From NCBI GenBank assembly GCA_964632945.1, contig CAZWCX010000005.1, positions 9,305-73,304 of the forward strand: 64,000 nucleotides of DNA. The letters run 5' to 3'. The DNA is from an uncultured Planctomycetia bacterium (GTDB taxonomy: Bacteria > Planctomycetota > MHYJ01 > WSZJ01 > CAZWCX01). Below, in pieces: positions 23,807 through 52,906 of the stretch. Below the pieces are notes generated by a model. The model was not told the DNA's origin, did no database searches, and saw nothing but the letters and a program-made list of their open reading frames with translations. How positions within the stretch are numbered: position 1 is the first letter of the stretch; every line of letters begins with the position of its first letter. Position numbers and translations under genes: made by a program.

Positions 23807-24105
23807 GTTCGGGATCTCCGTGCGGAGTCGATACCGGCCTGCCCAGGGTTGCAATTGCCGTGCCGGGCGCGCGCCGCAGGTCTGCACTCCCTGGATTCAA
23901 ACAGGAAGGGCGCACGCCTTATTCGGGGATTGCCGTGACCCACTCCGGGTCCCGCGCGACAGTCTGTCAAAAGGGCAGGAGGCAGGGCCGAGATCACGGG
24001 GGCAGGCAGATGCGACCGGTCGGCCCCCATCGCGGGATCCGGGGGCTCACGTCGTTGACGCGCGGGACGGAGCGGGGTACCCTGCACGGATCGGAAGGAG
24101 GACCG

Positions 24106-33427: not shown

Positions 33428-35104
33428 ATGGCCCAGCAATTCATCATGGTCATCAAGGGCTTGCGCAAGTACTACGAGCGCAAGGAGGTCATCCGGGACA
33501 TCTCCCTCTCGTTCTACCCCGGCGCCAAGATCGGCATCCTGGGCGGAAACGGGGCCGGAAAGTCGACCCTGCTCCGGGTCATGGCCGGCGTGGAGAAGGA
33601 CATCGAGGGGGAAGTCTGGCACGCCCCCGGCACCACGATCGGGTATGTCCCGCAGGAACCGCTCCTCGACACGGACAAGGACGTGCGCGGCGTCGTCGAG
33701 GAGGCGGTGGAGCCGGTGCGTCGATTGCTGCAGGAACACGAGGAGATCGGCGCCCGCCTCGGGGAACCGCTCGAACCGGAGGAGATGGAAAAGGCCCTGG
33801 CGCGCCTGGAGACGGTTCAGGCCCAGATTGAGGCCTGCGGCGGGTGGGAGCTCGACCGGCAGCTGGAAATCGCGTCGGACGCGCTGCGTCTGCCCCCCTG
33901 GGACGCCAAGGTGAAGGTCCTCTCCGGCGGGGAGCGGCGGCGGGTGGCGCTCTGTCGCGTGCTCATGCAGCGTCCGGATCTCCTGCTCCTCGACGAACCG
34001 ACCAACCACCTCGATGCCGACACCGTGGCCTGGCTCGAACACCATCTCCAGGAGTATGCCGGATCGGTCATCGCGGTCACGCACGATCGTTACTTCCTGG
34101 ACAACGTCGCCGGCTGGATCCTCGAACTCGATCGCGGCCACGGCATCCCGTGGAAGGGGAATTATTCGAGTTGGCTGGAGCAGAAGAAACAGCGGCTGGA
34201 GCTCGAGGAAAAGGCGGAGACGGCGCGTCAGCGCACCCTGATGCGGGAGCTGGAGTGGGTCCGCATGTCCCCCCGGGCTCGCGTGGCCAAGAGCAAGGCC
34301 CGCCTGAAGGCGTACAACGAACTCGCCGCCCAGGAATTCGAGGAGCGGTCGGAGTCGGTCGTCCTTCAGCTGCCCCCGGGTCCGCAGCTCGGCAATCAGG
34401 TGGTCGAGACCCGCAGCCTGCGCAAGGGGTACGGGGACCGGGTGCTGATCGAGGACCTGACCTTCTCCCTCCCGCCCGGTGGAATCGTCGGGGTGATCGG
34501 CCCGAATGGCGCCGGCAAGACCACGCTCTTCCGCATGATCGTCGGCGAAGAGAAACCCGACTCCGGCGAGCTCGTGGTGGGAAACAGTGTCGTCCTGGCC
34601 TACGTGGACCAGAATCGCGAGACCCTGAACCCCGATCAGAGCGTCTTCCAGGAGGTCTCCGACGGGAAGGAGACCATCAAATTCGGCAAACGGGAGATCA
34701 ACTCCCGGGCCTACCTGGCGCGCTTCAATTTCAAGGGGTCGGACCAACAGAAGAAGGTGGGGGAGCTCTCCGGCGGGGAGCGAAATCGGATCCAGCTCGC
34801 CAAGTTGCTCCGTCGGGGGGGAAATGTCATCCTGCTCGACGAACCGACCAACGACTTGGATGTAGATACGCTTCGCGTCCTGGAGGAGGCCCTGCTGAAC
34901 TTCGCCGGGTGTGCGGTGATCATCAGCCACGACCGGTGGTTCCTGGACCGGATCGCGACCCACATCCTGTCCTTCGAGGGTGAGGGAAGGGTCCGCTGGT
35001 GGGAAGGCAACTACCAGTCCTATCACGAGATGCGCCGTGGCGAACTCGGGGACGCCGCCGATCGGCCGAGTCGCCTGAAGTACAAGAAGTTGATGAAAAC
35101 CTAG
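33428..35104 (+). CDS. ettA: Energy-dependent translational throttle protein EttA (ABC-F)
   Basis: ISLSFYPGAKIG, GGNGAGKST, LSGGERRRVAL, ELEWVRMSPRARVAKSKARL, second ABC domain GPNGAGKTT. Confidence 0.96.
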   Translation: MAQQFIMVIKGLRKYYERKEVIRDISLSFYPGAKIGILGGNGAGKSTLLRVMAGVEKDIEGEVWHAPGTTIGYVPQEPLLDTDKDVRGVVEEAVEPVRRLLQEHEEIGARLGEPLEPEEMEKALARLETVQAQIEACGGWELDRQLEIASDALRLPPWDAKVKVLSGGERRRVALCRVLMQRPDLLLLDEPTNHLDADTVAWLEHHLQEYAGSVIAVTHDRYFLDNVAGWILELDRGHGIPWKGNYSSWLEQKKQRLELEEKAETARQRTLMRELEWVRMSPRARVAKSKARLKAYNELAAQEFEERSESVVLQLPPGPQLGNQVVETRSLRKGYGDRVLIEDLTFSLPPGGIVGVIGPNGAGKTTLFRMIVGEEKPDSGELVVGNSVVLAYVDQNRETLNPDQSVFQEVSDGKETIKFGKREINSRAYLARFNFKGSDQQKKVGELSGGERNRIQLAKLLRRGGNVILLDEPTNDLDVDTLRVLEEALLNFAGCAVIISHDRWFLDRIATHILSFEGEGRVRWWEGNYQSYHEMRRGELGDAADRPSRLKYKKLMKT

Positions 35105-35268
35105 ATTACGTAACCGGTTGTGGAGTCTCCCATGGAACCAACCCGCCCCGGTTCGGTGGCGGCCCGCAGGCAGGGAATCGGGCCGACCGGGACACGGGGA
35201 TCGCGTGACGCCGCCCGCGCGAGGGGGGCTCCCAGGAACGCGCCCAAAGATTCCGAATTGGTAATAGT

Positions 35269-35286
35269 CGTTACTGCGGCGCAACA
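35269..35286 (+). promoter_or_regulatory. Candidate enhancer (UAS) for a sigma54 activator, copy 1
   Basis: CGT-N12-ACA (CGTTACTGCGGCGCAACA), 110 bp upstream of the -24 GG. Matches the site at 36467. Confidence 0.55.
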
Positions 35287-35377
35287 GATAGCCGGGATCG
35301 ATTTTGGGTGGAAATTGGTACGTTTCATTAAGTGCTTATAGATTAATGATTTATTAATTTCACGCTTCAATCGTCTT

Positions 35378-35395
35378 GGGTATGTCGATTGCTAA
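35378..35395 (+). promoter_or_regulatory. sigma54 -24/-12 promoter, copy 1
   Basis: GGGTATG-TCGA-TTGCTAA with GG-N10-GC spacing; AT-rich tract upstream. Confidence 0.65.
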
Positions 35396-35498
35396 CACCC
35401 CTCCCATCGGATTGACAACGAGACGACGAACGATACGGAGACAGAGAGAGTGAATCCCCGCAAGGGGGTCGAGTTGGTTGCGTTGTTGGAGTAGGAAT

Positions 35499-35768
35499 AT
35501 GAAGCACCTGTTCACACTGGCCGCAGTGCTGGTGCTGGTCGGGACGCTCTTCGTGGGCGTGCCTGCCAGCGTGTTCGGGTGACCCCCGCCTGGGGCCCCG
35601 CCTCCCCCGGACATTACGCCTGGCCCGGGTCCGGTTCCGGATCCGCCGGGGGGAGATGATGATGGTGGTGGTGACGACGATGACGGTGGTGGCGACGACG
35701 ACGACGGCGGCCCGGAGACGCAGGTTGATGACGGGCCCGACGCTGGCGAAGAGCGCTATCTGATGTAA
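35499..35768 (+). CDS. Small secreted Pro/Gly/Asp-rich peptide with an in-frame TGA at codon 28, copy 1 (89 aa if read through)
   Basis: SD GGAGTAGGA, MKHLFTLAAVLVLVGTLFVGVPASVFG, TGA (35580..35582), then PPPGAPPPPDITPGPGPVPDPPGGDDDGGGDDDDGGGDDDDGGPETQVDDGPDAGEERYLM-TAA. Missed by the ORF track. Confidence 0.7.
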
Positions 35769-35790
35769 TCGTTCCTCACTTCAGAACATC

Positions 35791-35832
35791 CTCGAGGGCT
35801 CGCGACACCCGTCGCGGGCCTTCGAGTGTTTT
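35791..35832 (+). terminator. Intrinsic terminator after copy 1
   Basis: 16-bp stem CTCGAGGGCTCGCGAC-ACCC-GTCGCGGGCCTTCGAG followed by TGTTTT. Confidence 0.7.
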
Positions 35833-36466
35833 CGGGGTCTTTACAGCCTCTGCACTTGCACGTCCTCGACGGCCGCCCGTCAACCCGCGCGTTGCGGGAG
35901 CTACTGCCGGGCCGGAATCGTGCCGGGCGTCCCCGACGCCGCTCACACCGGAGGCCATGGATCCTGGCTCGCCCCCCGGCTCATCTCGGCTTGGCTGGGA
36001 TCTTTGTAGGGAAGGCTCCGGGAGCAGGCGCGGCGACACAAATGCGGCTCCCGTTGGCCCGGCGTCAGGCCGGCCCGGGTCCAGGCGCACGGAGACCCGC
36101 ACCCGCGCGCGAGCGGGGGGCGGTCGCGGCCGTTCGTGGTGCTCGCCCCTCGGCTCAGGACCCGCGCGCGATCGGGACGCGGTGGCGAGGCGGTCCATGC
36201 CCCGGGCGTGGGCCAAGGACTCCGTCCGAATCGAGCGACCGTCGGCCGCCTTGCCACTTCGATGGATCTTCTTAAAGTGGGCGTTCATGTAGTAGCGTGA
36301 ATGCGAGAAGTGCGGGGCGTGCGCACCCAGGTCCGGGGTGTTCCCCTGCGGTCGAGTTTCCGCCCCGACGCGATCCAGTACCCACCGCCCGTGCCCGAGA
36401 CCCGTCCGATCTCGGTCGGGCCCTCGCCTGAATCGCTACCCTGAGGAAACAGTCATTGGAGTTCCC

Positions 36467-36484
36467 TGTTACCCGTGCGGAACA
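36467..36484 (+). promoter_or_regulatory. Candidate enhancer (UAS) for a sigma54 activator, copy 2
   Basis: TGT-N12-ACA (TGTTACCCGTGCGGAACA), 112 bp upstream of the -24 GG. Confidence 0.55.
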
Positions 36485-36577
36485 AATCGAAAGTCGTGAT
36501 CCAGCGCTGAATTCCAAGTATGGTTTTAAAGCGTTTTATAATAACATGTTGAGAAACAAATAAGAATTCTAGTCCTG

Positions 36578-36595
36578 CGGTACGGTCGTTGCTAA
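36578..36595 (+). promoter_or_regulatory. sigma54 -24/-12 promoter, copy 2
   Basis: CGGTACG-GTCG-TTGCTAA versus consensus TGGCACG-N4-TTGCW; AT-rich tract upstream. Confidence 0.7.
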
Positions 36596-36688
36596 ATGCA
36601 CCCTCGTCCAACACGAACGACGCCGAACGAAACCAACGAAGTAGTGACGGGGCCGCGAGGCCCTGAAGGACCTGTGAAGGAGAGAAGC

Positions 36689-36958
36689 ATGAAGCACCTG
36701 TTCACACTGGCCGCAGTGCTGGTGCTGGTCGGGACGCTCTTCGTGGGCGTGCCTGCCAGCGTGTTCGGGTGACCCCCGCCTGGGGCCCCGCCTCCCCCGG
36801 ACATTACGCCTGGCCCGGGTCCGGTTCCGGATCCGCCGGGGGGAGATGATGATGGTGGTGGTGACGACGATGACGGTGGTGGCGACGACGACGACGGCGG
36901 CCCGGAGACGCAGGTTGATGACGGGCCCGACGCTGGCGAAGAGCGCTATCTGATGTAA
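36689..36958 (+). CDS. Small secreted Pro/Gly/Asp-rich peptide with an in-frame TGA at codon 28, copy 2
   Basis: Identical by eye to 35499..35768. SD AAGGAG. TGA at 36770..36772. Confidence 0.7.
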
Positions 36959-36985
36959 TCTCCTCAACACAGTGGAACGTTCCAG

Positions 36986-37020
36986 AGGGGGCTTGCGATT
37001 GCGATCGCAAGCCCCCTTGT
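36986..37020 (+). terminator. Terminator-like hairpin after copy 2
   Basis: 14-bp stem AGGGGGCTTGCGAT-TGCG-ATCGCAAGCCCCCT followed by TGT. Confidence 0.65.
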
Positions 37021-37130
37021 CCATTTCTCCTCAATCTCGCCGAATCCACGAACTTTCCGCTCGCCCCGAGGGTCTAAGGACCCGGCCATCCTTGATTCGG
37101 AAGTTCCGCAAGCTCCTTCCAGGGATTGGC

Positions 37131-37158
37131 TTGACGACTTCCCGCGACGGGCTATAAT
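37131..37158 (+). promoter_or_regulatory. sigma70 promoter for the 37200..50783 gene run
   Basis: TTGACG-N16-TATAAT. Confidence 0.75.
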
Positions 37159-51016: not shown

Positions 51017-52906
51017 ATGGCCCTCCCCCCGAGTTCCCGCTCCGCCACCGGCCGAATCACCGTCCATGCGCGCGGATTCGGCTTCCTCGTGTGCGAGGAC
51101 GCCGGCGGGCGTCTCGATGCCTTCATTGCGCCGCCGGACCTGCAGCCGTTTCTGGCCGACGATCTGGCCGCGGCCACCGTCCGACAGGGGCAGGACGGCC
51201 GTTGGACTGCCGCAGACCTGCAGTTGGTCGAACGCCGGCGCGAACGGATCTTCGGGGAAGTCGTCTTCCGCCGCACGGCACCGTGGTTGCGTCCCGACCG
51301 GGAAGTGGGCAATACCGATCTAAGACTCGAAGCGCAGGGGGTCACGCTGCGCACCGGGGACGCGGTGATCGCGCGACCGACCCCGCAGGGCGCCGCAGTC
51401 GTCCGCGTGCTCGCTGCCGGGGAGGACCGGTCGCTGGCGCGAACGACGGCGCGTCACGACCTCCGGGAGGATTTCGAACCCGGCTGCCATGCGGAAGCCA
51501 GGCAGGTGGCCGGGCGCCCCCACGCGCTGGGGGCGCGCCGAGACCTGCGCGGGATCCCGCTGCTCACGGTCGACGCGGCCCACACCCGGGACATCGACGA
51601 CGCCGTCGCCGTCCTCCCGGCCGGGCCGGACGGAGCCCTGCGCCTGTTGGTGGCCATCTCCGACGTCGGGGCCTTCGTTCCCGAGGGTTCCGTGCTGGAT
51701 CTCGCCGCTCGTGACCGCGCCACGAGCGTCTACCTCGCCGGTCGCACGCTGCCCATGTTCCCCGAGGAACTCTCGGCCGGGTGGCTGAGTCTGAACCCGG
51801 GCGTGGACCGGGCCTGCCTCGCCGCAGAGTTGCGGCTGGACCCGGAAGGGACGGTGACGTCGGTCGACGTGTACGAGGGGCTGCTCCGCTCCCGGGCCCG
51901 GCTCGACTACACGGAGACGGCGGCGTTCCTCGACCGGGGCGTGATTTCGCCGGCGATGGGCCCGGTGGCGGAGGCGATGCCGTGGTTGCGGGCGGCCTCG
52001 GCGCGCCTGGCGATCGCGCGCCAACGGCGCGGCGGGGTGAAGATGTCGCGCGAGGAAACGCGGATCACGTTCGATGCCGGCAGCGGGGAGGCGACCGGTC
52101 TGGAAAGCGTGCGACCGACGAGCGCGCACGCCATGATCGAACGATTCATGGTGGCCGCCAACGAGGCGATGGCGCACTGGCTCGTCGACCGGGGCGTGGG
52201 AACGCTTTTTCGTTCCCATGCGCAGCCGAACGTCGAGCGGGTGCGGGATTTGGCGGACTTTGCGCGAAATTTCGGTTTCGCGGCCGGCTTCGCATCGTCG
52301 ATCACGCCCCTGGCGCTGGCCGCATTCGAAGCGCAGGTGACGGGGGCCGACTGCGAACCGGCCCTGCGGGCCGTTCTCCTGCGCTCGCTCGGGCCCGCCC
52401 AGTACGTCGGGACCGCGGCGCCCCACTTCGGCCTGGCCGCGGATCGGTATCTGCACTTCACCTCTCCGATCCGGCGCTACGCCGACCTGGTGGTGCACCG
52501 GACCGTAAAGGCCTACCTGCAGGGGGAACGGGAGTTCGCGGGGCGTGCGGAGGTTCTCGGGCGCCTGGCGGAACACGTCAACCGACGCGCCCGCGCGGCG
52601 TCGCGCGCGGAGGCGGACCGTCGCCGGACGCTGTTCGCGCGCCTCTTCGCGTCCCGGGTCGGCGAGGAGCTTCCCGCCCGGGTCGTCCAGGTGCGTCCCT
52701 TCGGGCTCATCGTGCAGCTCGACGGCACCTGGGTGGAGGGAGTGCTGCCTGCGGAGACGCTTCCCGACGGGCCCTACGCGATCGACGACCGCGAGACGGC
52801 GCTGAGGGGCGCGGCGCGGGAGTTCGCGATCGGAGTCCCGCTGCGGGTCCGCGTGGCCTCGAGCGATGAGGGCGCGGGGCGGATCGAGTTCGCGCTCGCG
52901 CCGTAG
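51017..52906 (+). CDS. RNB-domain exoribonuclease (RNase R/II family)
   Basis: Cold-shock-like HARGFGF, catalytic TVDAAHTRDIDDA, IERFMVAANE, HFTSPIRRYADL, C-terminal S1 domain. Confidence 0.92.
   Translation: MALPPSSRSATGRITVHARGFGFLVCEDAGGRLDAFIAPPDLQPFLADDLAAATVRQGQDGRWTAADLQLVERRRERIFGEVVFRRTAPWLRPDREVGNTDLRLEAQGVTLRTGDAVIARPTPQGAAVVRVLAAGEDRSLARTTARHDLREDFEPGCHAEARQVAGRPHALGARRDLRGIPLLTVDAAHTRDIDDAVAVLPAGPDGALRLLVAISDVGAFVPEGSVLDLAARDRATSVYLAGRTLPMFPEELSAGWLSLNPGVDRACLAAELRLDPEGTVTSVDVYEGLLRSRARLDYTETAAFLDRGVISPAMGPVAEAMPWLRAASARLAIARQRRGGVKMSREETRITFDAGSGEATGLESVRPTSAHAMIERFMVAANEAMAHWLVDRGVGTLFRSHAQPNVERVRDLADFARNFGFAAGFASSITPLALAAFEAQVTGADCEPALRAVLLRSLGPAQYVGTAAPHFGLAADRYLHFTSPIRRYADLVVHRTVKAYLQGEREFAGRAEVLGRLAEHVNRRARAASRAEADRRRTLFARLFASRVGEELPARVVQVRPFGLIVQLDGTWVEGVLPAETLPDGPYAIDDRETALRGAAREFAIGVPLRVRVASSDEGAGRIEFALAP

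Follow-up and report, generated by a model that had tools for sequence, protein, structure and literature searches.

Enhancer-dependent promoters are classically exemplified by nifH, where NifA acts at a TGT-N10-ACA site together with IHF, and by glnAp2, which is controlled by NtrC. Among small secreted proteins, the PEP-CTERM proteins are encoded in many single-gene operons under PrsK/PrsR/sigma-54 control, and the large intergenic region of these operons consists of an activator motif, a spacer (~63), a -24/-12 motif and a leader of ~70 nt (Haft et al. 2006, PMC1569441). In the PilS/PilR-sigma-54 systems of Pseudomonas, Myxococcus and Xanthomonas, an NtrC-family regulator is found among prepilin-type genes with sigma-54 promoters (PMC6058289, PMC7170775). 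Here we analysed a 64,000-nt stretch of the genome of an uncultured Planctomycetia bacterium (the window; positions 9305-73304 of contig C5 in genome G000, whose contigs bear C numbers), which holds two copies of a 270-nt peptide gene with an in-frame TGA. We consider it probable (about 0.85) that each copy is its own sigma-54 transcription unit, activated by an NtrC-family regulator through an inverted repeat (dyad) lying upstream. The mechanism is ordinary, textbook enhancer-dependent control; what is new is the regulon, which brings together pseudopilin genes and an undescribed family of very highly expressed peptides headed by cysteine (Cys) or selenocysteine (Sec) with a defined dyad and a candidate activator.

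The PrsR/sigma-54 PEP-CTERM system is the closest described case, as an analogue and not as a system to which this locus belongs. In both, the upstream motif is linked to one NtrC-family response regulator, here a candidate encoded on contig C73, and single-gene operons show the same intergenic layout. Unlike the proteins of that system, the peptides described here lack a PEP-CTERM anchor; the C73 regulator scores 363.5 bits with the PrsR model TIGR02915, below its cut-off of 502.6; the spacer is ~92-128 nt and not ~63; and the co-regulated genes are pseudopilin genes here and exopolysaccharide genes there. As in PilS/PilR, an NtrC-family regulator is encoded among prepilin-type genes with sigma-54 promoters, both on C73 and in the genomes of genus g2. 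In contrast to PilS/PilR, no PilS-like kinase is adjacent in the loci that were read, including the 8.5-kb C73 locus; no PilR model is among the NCBIfam matches, and the C73 regulator reaches the cut-off of no NCBIfam equivalog (NtrC, AtoC and PrsR included). The targets also differ, since they look like pseudopilins of the type II secretion system (T2SS) or of the 'Verru_Chthon cassette', and the regulon adds a small non-pilin peptide family, its most abundant transcript. Compared with what is established for nifH and glnAp2, the locus has the same GG at -24 and GC at -12, a palindromic enhancer ~100 bp upstream and a spacer that is AT-rich or bent, while its dyad is GTTAC-N6-GTAAC with GT-N12-AC as outer shell and no IHF consensus was found.

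Sigma-54 promoters are conserved upstream of the peptide genes

The genome amounts to 7.63 Mb in 263 contigs with 69% GC. Within the window, the two peptide genes are 100% identical over 272 nt (35499-35770 versus 36689-36960), whereas the flanks on both sides are only ~50% identical; judged from the sequence, this suggests a gene conversion limited to the peptide gene itself. Because the upstream regions are otherwise only about half identical, the promoter and dyad motifs stand out as conserved islands. The promoter elements, GGTATGTCGATTGCTAA at 35379-35395 and GGTACGGTCGTTGCTAA at 36579-36595, follow the pattern GGTAYG-N4-TTGCTAA. Both have the canonical GG-N10-GC spacing of sigma-54 promoters and the corresponding context (TGGCAC-N5-TTGCW-like, with GG at -24 and GC at -12). 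A first-pass annotation of the sequence had placed promoter motifs at 35379 and 36579, and this is confirmed: they are the only two matches in the 64-kb window even when one mismatch is allowed, with 0.02 expected.

To score sigma-54 sites genome-wide, we derived a simple weight matrix from the published consensus. In 15.3 Mb of strand, 993 sites score at least 17.5, compared to ~737 expected under a first-order Markov model, and only 34 score at least 20. Among the genes preceded by the 77 best-scoring sites are an FlgB-like gene and pilin genes, and 32% of these sites fall in low-GC DNA, versus 8.6% of random positions. From this gene context and the low-GC enrichment it follows that the matrix detects real promoters in this organism.

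A separate search of the genome contigs returned no relatives of the peptide; these were found by a search of 61 related genomes, in 10 genomes that belong to three families of a single order. The resulting family set counts 20 genes, namely 19 distinct ones and the second window copy (genomes G000, G001, G003, G004 and G006-G011), and its members often stand in tandem arrays of two or three. A -24/-12 element with GG-N10-GC spacing is the best site upstream of all 20 genes (scores 17.6-20.3), and in every case its -12 C is 51-107 nt away from the ATG. GG, TTGC and A at -22 are each present in 19-20 of the 20 promoters (19/20 for the A), while the sequence around them is not conserved. Within 330 nt, such a site would arise by chance with a probability of 0.021 in this genome and 0.019 in the loci of the relatives; within the observed 60-nt positional window, the value drops to 0.0035 per gene. 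It is above all the conservation of the element in 20/20 genes, set against these chance levels, that argues for real promoters.

A shared inverted repeat lies upstream of both promoters

GTTAC-N7-SAACARAT occurs at 35270 and 36468 and nowhere else in the window (0.04 matches expected). Counted with an extra 5' base, these motifs lie 110 and 112 bp before the promoter elements, which agrees with the distances given at first pass. We then defined the dyad by anchoring the upstream regions of the family on the promoter, and the motif is best read as one version of a conserved inverted repeat, GTTAC-N6-GTAAC. The earlier description of a shared enhancer of TGT-N12-ACA type is thus retained as to the shared site and revised as to its form, TGT-N12-ACA being the outer shell of the true one. 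With at most one mismatch, the dyad is found in 12 of the 20 family genes, 108-144 nt upstream of the promoter 16-mer, and the relatives often carry a third GTAAC half-site. In a strain variant, the dyad of copy 2 is identical despite five differences in its vicinity. Both window dyads fall within the 80-200 bp upstream (Table 1) at which an activator would bind, and activator genes are present in the genome.

The tracts between the dyads and the promoters are AT-rich, as reported in the first-pass annotation, with a measured GC content as low as 28% (copy 1) and 25% (copy 2) in a 69% GC genome. The genome itself carries two strong HU/IHF-family genes. A recurrent (A/G)ACTT(A/G) motif located ~32 nt upstream of the promoter 16-mer in eight relatives is absent from the two window copies.

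The dyad marks a regulon and a candidate activator

The genome encodes a single RpoN (Sigma54_DBD 210 bits), a 576-aa open reading frame whose region I is typical and whose RpoN box reads ARRTVTKYR, together with ~29 strong Sigma54_activat domains, the AAA+ domain of bacterial enhancer-binding proteins (bEBPs). The components that the proposed sigma-54 control presupposes are thus in place. A genome-wide scan for the upstream site marked out peptide genes, pseudopilin genes and one activator gene. The genome contains only 18 dyads with at most one mismatch, and 8 of them, distributed over 7 loci (Table 1), have a sigma-54 site scoring at least 18 within 220 nt, while ~0.5 such co-occurrences would be expected.

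The candidate activator is a response regulator of 451 aa (G000:C73:14847-16202) that displays a receiver domain, a Sigma54_activat domain and HTH_8, a Fis-type helix-turn-helix. Tandem dyads, 21 bp apart, directly follow its gene, and then come TGGTATGACATTTGCT and three N_methyl genes. This is the PilR-type arrangement, in which an NtrC-family regulator accompanies sigma-54-driven prepilin-type genes, and the same context recurs in g2 genomes. Orthologues of the C73 regulator are 50-57% identical to it, compared with 43% for the next paralogue, and in the genus-g2 genomes they lie inside pseudopilin clusters. A perfect dyad is located 43 nt upstream of the orthologue start in 7/7 g2 orthologue loci and a second one at 20 nt in 6 of these 7, while the loci of the paralogues have no dyads. 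In the 5.4 Mb of genome G007, only four perfect dyads are found, versus none for a reversed control. The four mark a peptide gene, the activator gene, a pseudopilin cluster and a secreted-protein gene, and all but the one at the activator gene have a sigma-54 site 79-122 nt away. Taken together, the balance tips modestly towards the C73 regulator being the activator that acts on the dyad.

On a broader scale, perfect dyads number 39 versus 2 in reversed controls within the order, 125 versus 21 in the rest of the class (among G012-G055), and 0 versus 9 in five genomes of other classes. The class-wide dyads of G012-G055 often form tandem arrays with 20-50 bp between them. In the leader of a sigma-54-driven g2 pseudopilin operon, we also observed a palindrome, TTGACGCAnTGCGTCAA, in three copies (L036:577-593, 671-687 and 776-791; also in L042), which could be the operator of a second regulator or form RNA hairpins.

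Both peptide genes are highly transcribed

Transcription was followed in assembled Logan contigs of public metatranscriptomes, which are not reads and whose 5' boundaries are ragged (35470 to 35617). Eight RNA runs were covered, and contigs over the coding sequence came from the bioreactor runs X5, X6, X24 and X25. In these four runs, RNA depth over the coding sequence is 139-1418, compared to 2-7 for neighbouring genes. The ratio of peptide to neighbour depth is ~200 in X5, 280 in X24 and 60 in X6, with no neighbour contig in X25, and these samples are too few to show conditional induction. The RNA contigs include flanks specific to copy 1 (35470-35498 and 35771-35786) as well as a flank specific to copy 2 (36959-36978), and therefore both copies are transcribed. 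Of the strong and conditional induction that had been proposed at first pass, the very high transcription of both copies is observed, while the conditional part is not carried by so few depth ratios. The identical coding sequence also occurs, at low depth, in marine and soil metagenome runs.

In the same eight runs, no RNA contig lies upstream of any -24/-12 element, and none covers 35404-35469 or 36480-36688. The RNA of copy 1 seems to have a defined end at 35481, where an adapter junction lies 77 nt past 35404, and one contig starts at the base right after the hairpin at 35454-35469. The folds of the whole leaders have no extra stability relative to shuffled sequences (z of -0.4 and -0.6), and only the small GNRA hairpins are common to the two. 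At its other end, the copy 2 transcript finishes, according to adapter junctions in two RNA runs, 9-11 nt before the hairpin at 36987-37016 and not after it. We also observed an RNA contig of ~207 nt (L021:1938-2146; G000:C16, ~52548-52756; depth 94 in X5 and 22 in X6) directly upstream of the enhancer of the C16 paralogue; it has no Rfam match and could be a small RNA or an untranslated region.

A model of enhancer-dependent activation and its alternatives

We propose that sigma-54 RNA polymerase binds GGTAYG-N4-TTGCT (-12 C at 35392 and 36592) and waits there as a closed complex. An NtrC-family activator would bind GTTAC-N6-GTAAC ~100 bp upstream, the AT-rich spacer would permit DNA looping, and ATP hydrolysis by the activator would open the promoter, so that transcription would start near 35404 and 36604, ~12 nt past the -12 C. 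The 5' end of the abundant mRNA is shorter (35470-35499), and the leader would probably be trimmed after the GNRA hairpin. The activator is most likely the C73 regulator, encoded within a pseudopilin gene cluster, in which case the peptide genes and the pseudopilin genes would belong to one regulon. The first-pass interpretation that one activator co-regulates both copies via sigma-54 is supported by the conserved promoter, the shared dyad and the high expression, binding of the activator being what we infer.

Several observations weigh against this model. Start sites had been expected near 35404 and 36604, and the RNA contigs give this no support: the 5' ends of copy 1 RNA lie at 35470-35499 (deeper in the gene in two runs), that is 66-95 nt past the predicted start, and sampled words of either leader occur in no RNA run. 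Similarly, the RNA end of the C16 paralogue, seen as an adapter junction, is 20 nt past the predicted start and at the base of a small hairpin, and the contig of the C73 pseudopilin operon begins 98 nt past it. Trimming of the leaders is the simplest reading of this mismatch at three regulon promoters; contigs cannot separate primary from processed 5' ends, and they neither confirm nor exclude the predicted starts. At the promoters, position -23 is a T in both window copies and a C in 18/20 relatives, the C73 promoter also reading TGGTAT. The right half of the dyad is degenerate at its second base in both copies (GCAAC and GGAAC), and the dyad is missing from 8 of the 20 family genes, including a four-gene subfamily in which no clear alternative dyad was found, just a loose CGTCTTG-N6-GTTCG block. 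The family is therefore not tied to one activator everywhere, the promoter being constant and the enhancer not. IHF bending, which had been mentioned as a frequent part of such promoters, finds no good consensus in the spacers: between enhancer and promoter, WATCAANNNNTTR is not matched in copy 1 even when one mismatch is allowed, copy 2 contains a single one-mismatch site, and few relatives have any. The helical phasing of dyad and promoter is weak as evidence (Rayleigh p = 0.03 at 10.5 bp/turn, with points that are not independent). Contig C5, from which the window is taken, holds none of the ~29 activator genes. Finally, the pairing of activator and dyad holds only within the order: in more distant families of the class, the protein that matches the activator best is not encoded next to dyads (in G027, a paralogue with 45% identity is), so that the tie to one orthogroup becomes ambiguous there.

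The RNA 5' ends would be accounted for if the abundant bioreactor mRNA came from another, unrecognised promoter near the ATG (~35440-35480), with the sigma-54 promoter real and used under other conditions or firing little. Contigs starting at 35470-35499, the adapter junction at 35481 and the missing coverage and words of the leaders (35404-35469 and 36604-36688) all fit with this. Such a promoter is nonetheless quite improbable, as the stretch from the sigma-54 element to the ATG contains no sigma-70-like site in either copy and the two leaders have no promoter-like block in common. Moreover, the 20 nt that separate the predicted start from the RNA end of the C16 paralogue leave no room for a second promoter, and in relatives the -12 C comes as close as 51-57 nt to the ATG, so that the sigma-54 element is the only conserved upstream signal. 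For copy 2 in particular, a perfect TATAAT hexamer at 36537-36542 raises the question of whether transcription starts from a sigma-70-like promoter, the sigma-54 look-alike being incidental. This is very hard to reconcile with the data: the hexamer has no -35 partner in a scan of the + strand, it lacks a counterpart in copy 1, it is changed to TAGAAT in the strain variant, and such hexamers arise by chance in AT-rich spacers. RNA depth is zero over 36480-36688, so that no contig points to a start at the TATAAT, the outcome that the first-pass annotation had named as counting against sigma-54 control.

A different objection concerns the dyad, whose binding is inferred from sequence and which might be recognised by another regulator, such as a repressor or a response regulator other than a bEBP, with the sigma-54 activator bound elsewhere or acting from solution. 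The dyads of g2, only 20-43 nt before the regulator start codon, are at a position typical of operators, and the 8/20 family promoters that lack a dyad would also fit. We regard this as unlikely given that, at 7 loci here and at 3/4 in G007, the dyads precede sigma-54 elements by 79-190 bp, the distance classically seen for enhancers; that tandem dyads are spaced by about two helical turns, as bEBP sites are; and that the only regulator gene consistently flanked by the dyad encodes a bEBP. As for the notion that the motifs are functionless chance matches, degenerate short motifs are common, as the 993 genome-wide sites (~737 expected) illustrate, but the comparative data effectively refute it: each of the 20 family genes has a site within a positional window where chance would give 0.0035, and dyad and promoter coincide eight times instead of 0.5. 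The reading that we favour is enhancer-dependent activation of each peptide gene from its own sigma-54 promoter.

The peptide family and other features of the window

When the TGA is read through, the product consists of a signal peptide followed by [U]PPPGAPPPPD... and an acidic Gly/Asp tail. It matched no family in Pfam or NCBIfam, and its C terminus (...GEERYLM) shows neither a membrane helix nor a PEP-CTERM domain. Of the 19 distinct family genes, 16 have Cys at the position of the TGA, and G003 again has TGA; in the window and at loci L003-L021 the context is F-[AG]-[C/U]-PPP, after the signal peptide. With its small residues at -3 and -1, this context is compatible with a signal peptidase I site and, less closely, with a lipobox. 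A tRNA-Sec gene is present in the genome. Decoding of the TGA is supported separately by the Cys-bearing relatives and by the tRNA-Sec gene. The promoter had been put forward at first pass as independent support that the TGA-containing gene is functional; this applies to its expression, and the promoter says nothing on TGA decoding.

An Rfam scan of 35100-37150 gave no matches. Elsewhere in the window, a near-consensus sigma-54 element, CGGCACGGCAATTGCA, lies on the - strand at 23850-23865; its score of 21.1 is among the five best of the genome, and it stands 43 nt upstream of an open reading frame that starts MKMKWSWKIGRLAGIDVYVH. The features of the peptide loci and the loci combining a dyad and a sigma-54 site are listed in Table 1.

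Table 1. Features of the two peptide loci (window coordinates) and loci of the genome with a dyad near a sigma-54 site.
Feature	Position	Strand	Details
Dyad (enhancer), copy 1, GTTACTGCGGCGCAAC	35270..35285	.	GTTAC-N6-GTAAC with one right-half mismatch; 108 nt upstream of promoter 16-mer
AT-rich spacer, copy 1	35300..35375	.	down to 28% GC (35310-35369); possible bend or HU/IHF site
Sigma-54 -24/-12 element, copy 1, GGGTATGTCGATTGCT	35378..35393	+	GG 35379-80, GC 35391-92; score 18.4
Predicted 95-nt leader, copy 1	35404..35498	+	GNRA-loop hairpin 35454-35469 (fold)
Peptide gene, copy 1	35499..35768	+	signal peptide, in-frame TGA 35580-35582, acidic Pro/Gly/Asp tail; RNA depth up to 1308-1418
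Terminator-like hairpin after copy 1	35791..35826	+	sequence scan
Dyad (enhancer), copy 2, GTTACCCGTGCGGAAC	36468..36483	.	GTTAC-N6-GTAAC with one right-half mismatch; 110 nt upstream of promoter 16-mer
AT-rich spacer, copy 2	36495..36575	.	down to 25% GC (36510-36569); includes TATAAT at 36537 (TAGAAT in strain variant)
Sigma-54 -24/-12 element, copy 2, CGGTACGGTCGTTGCT	36578..36593	+	GG 36579-80, GC 36591-92; score 20.3
Predicted 85-nt leader, copy 2	36604..36688	+	GNRA-loop hairpin 36648-36665 (fold)
Peptide gene, copy 2	36689..36958	+	same as copy 1 from ATG to TAA; in-frame TGA 36770-36772; copy-2-specific 3' flank present in RNA contigs
RNA 3' end of copy 2 and hairpin	36976..37016	+	3' end at 36976-36978 (adapter junctions in RNA contigs), then GC-rich hairpin 36987-37016 (sequence)
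Dyad and sigma-54 site, loci 1-2	window copies 1 and 2
Dyad and sigma-54 site	C16		third peptide paralogue
Dyad and sigma-54 site	C36		pseudopilin gene
Dyad and sigma-54 site	C5:90645		GspK-like 972-aa gene
Dyad and sigma-54 site	C73		three prepilin-type (N_methyl) genes
Dyad and sigma-54 site, weaker case	C99		before a gene without identification

Implications

A wider hypothesis, which we put forward tentatively and with more doubt than confidence, is that the dyad and its NtrC-family regulator constitute a sigma-54 regulon of a pseudopilin system (type IV filament or T2SS-like), the dyad being enriched class-wide, and that this order has recruited to it small secreted acidic peptides headed by Cys or Sec, by far its most abundant transcript. 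If this is true, the peptide would have a functional tie to that filament system, whether as its cargo, as a partner or as a component of the matrix, and it would be the first selenopeptide known under enhancer-dependent control.

Closer to the data, the findings show that the peptide genes with a TGA are real and under independent control, and that their expression is strong, with an RNA depth 60-280 times that of their neighbours. The mismatch between predicted start and RNA 5' end at three regulon promoters suggests leader processing. Altogether, an uncultured lineage gains a testable enhancer sequence and a named candidate activator, and the shared enhancer links an undescribed peptide family to pseudopilin genes, which is a first functional lead for both.

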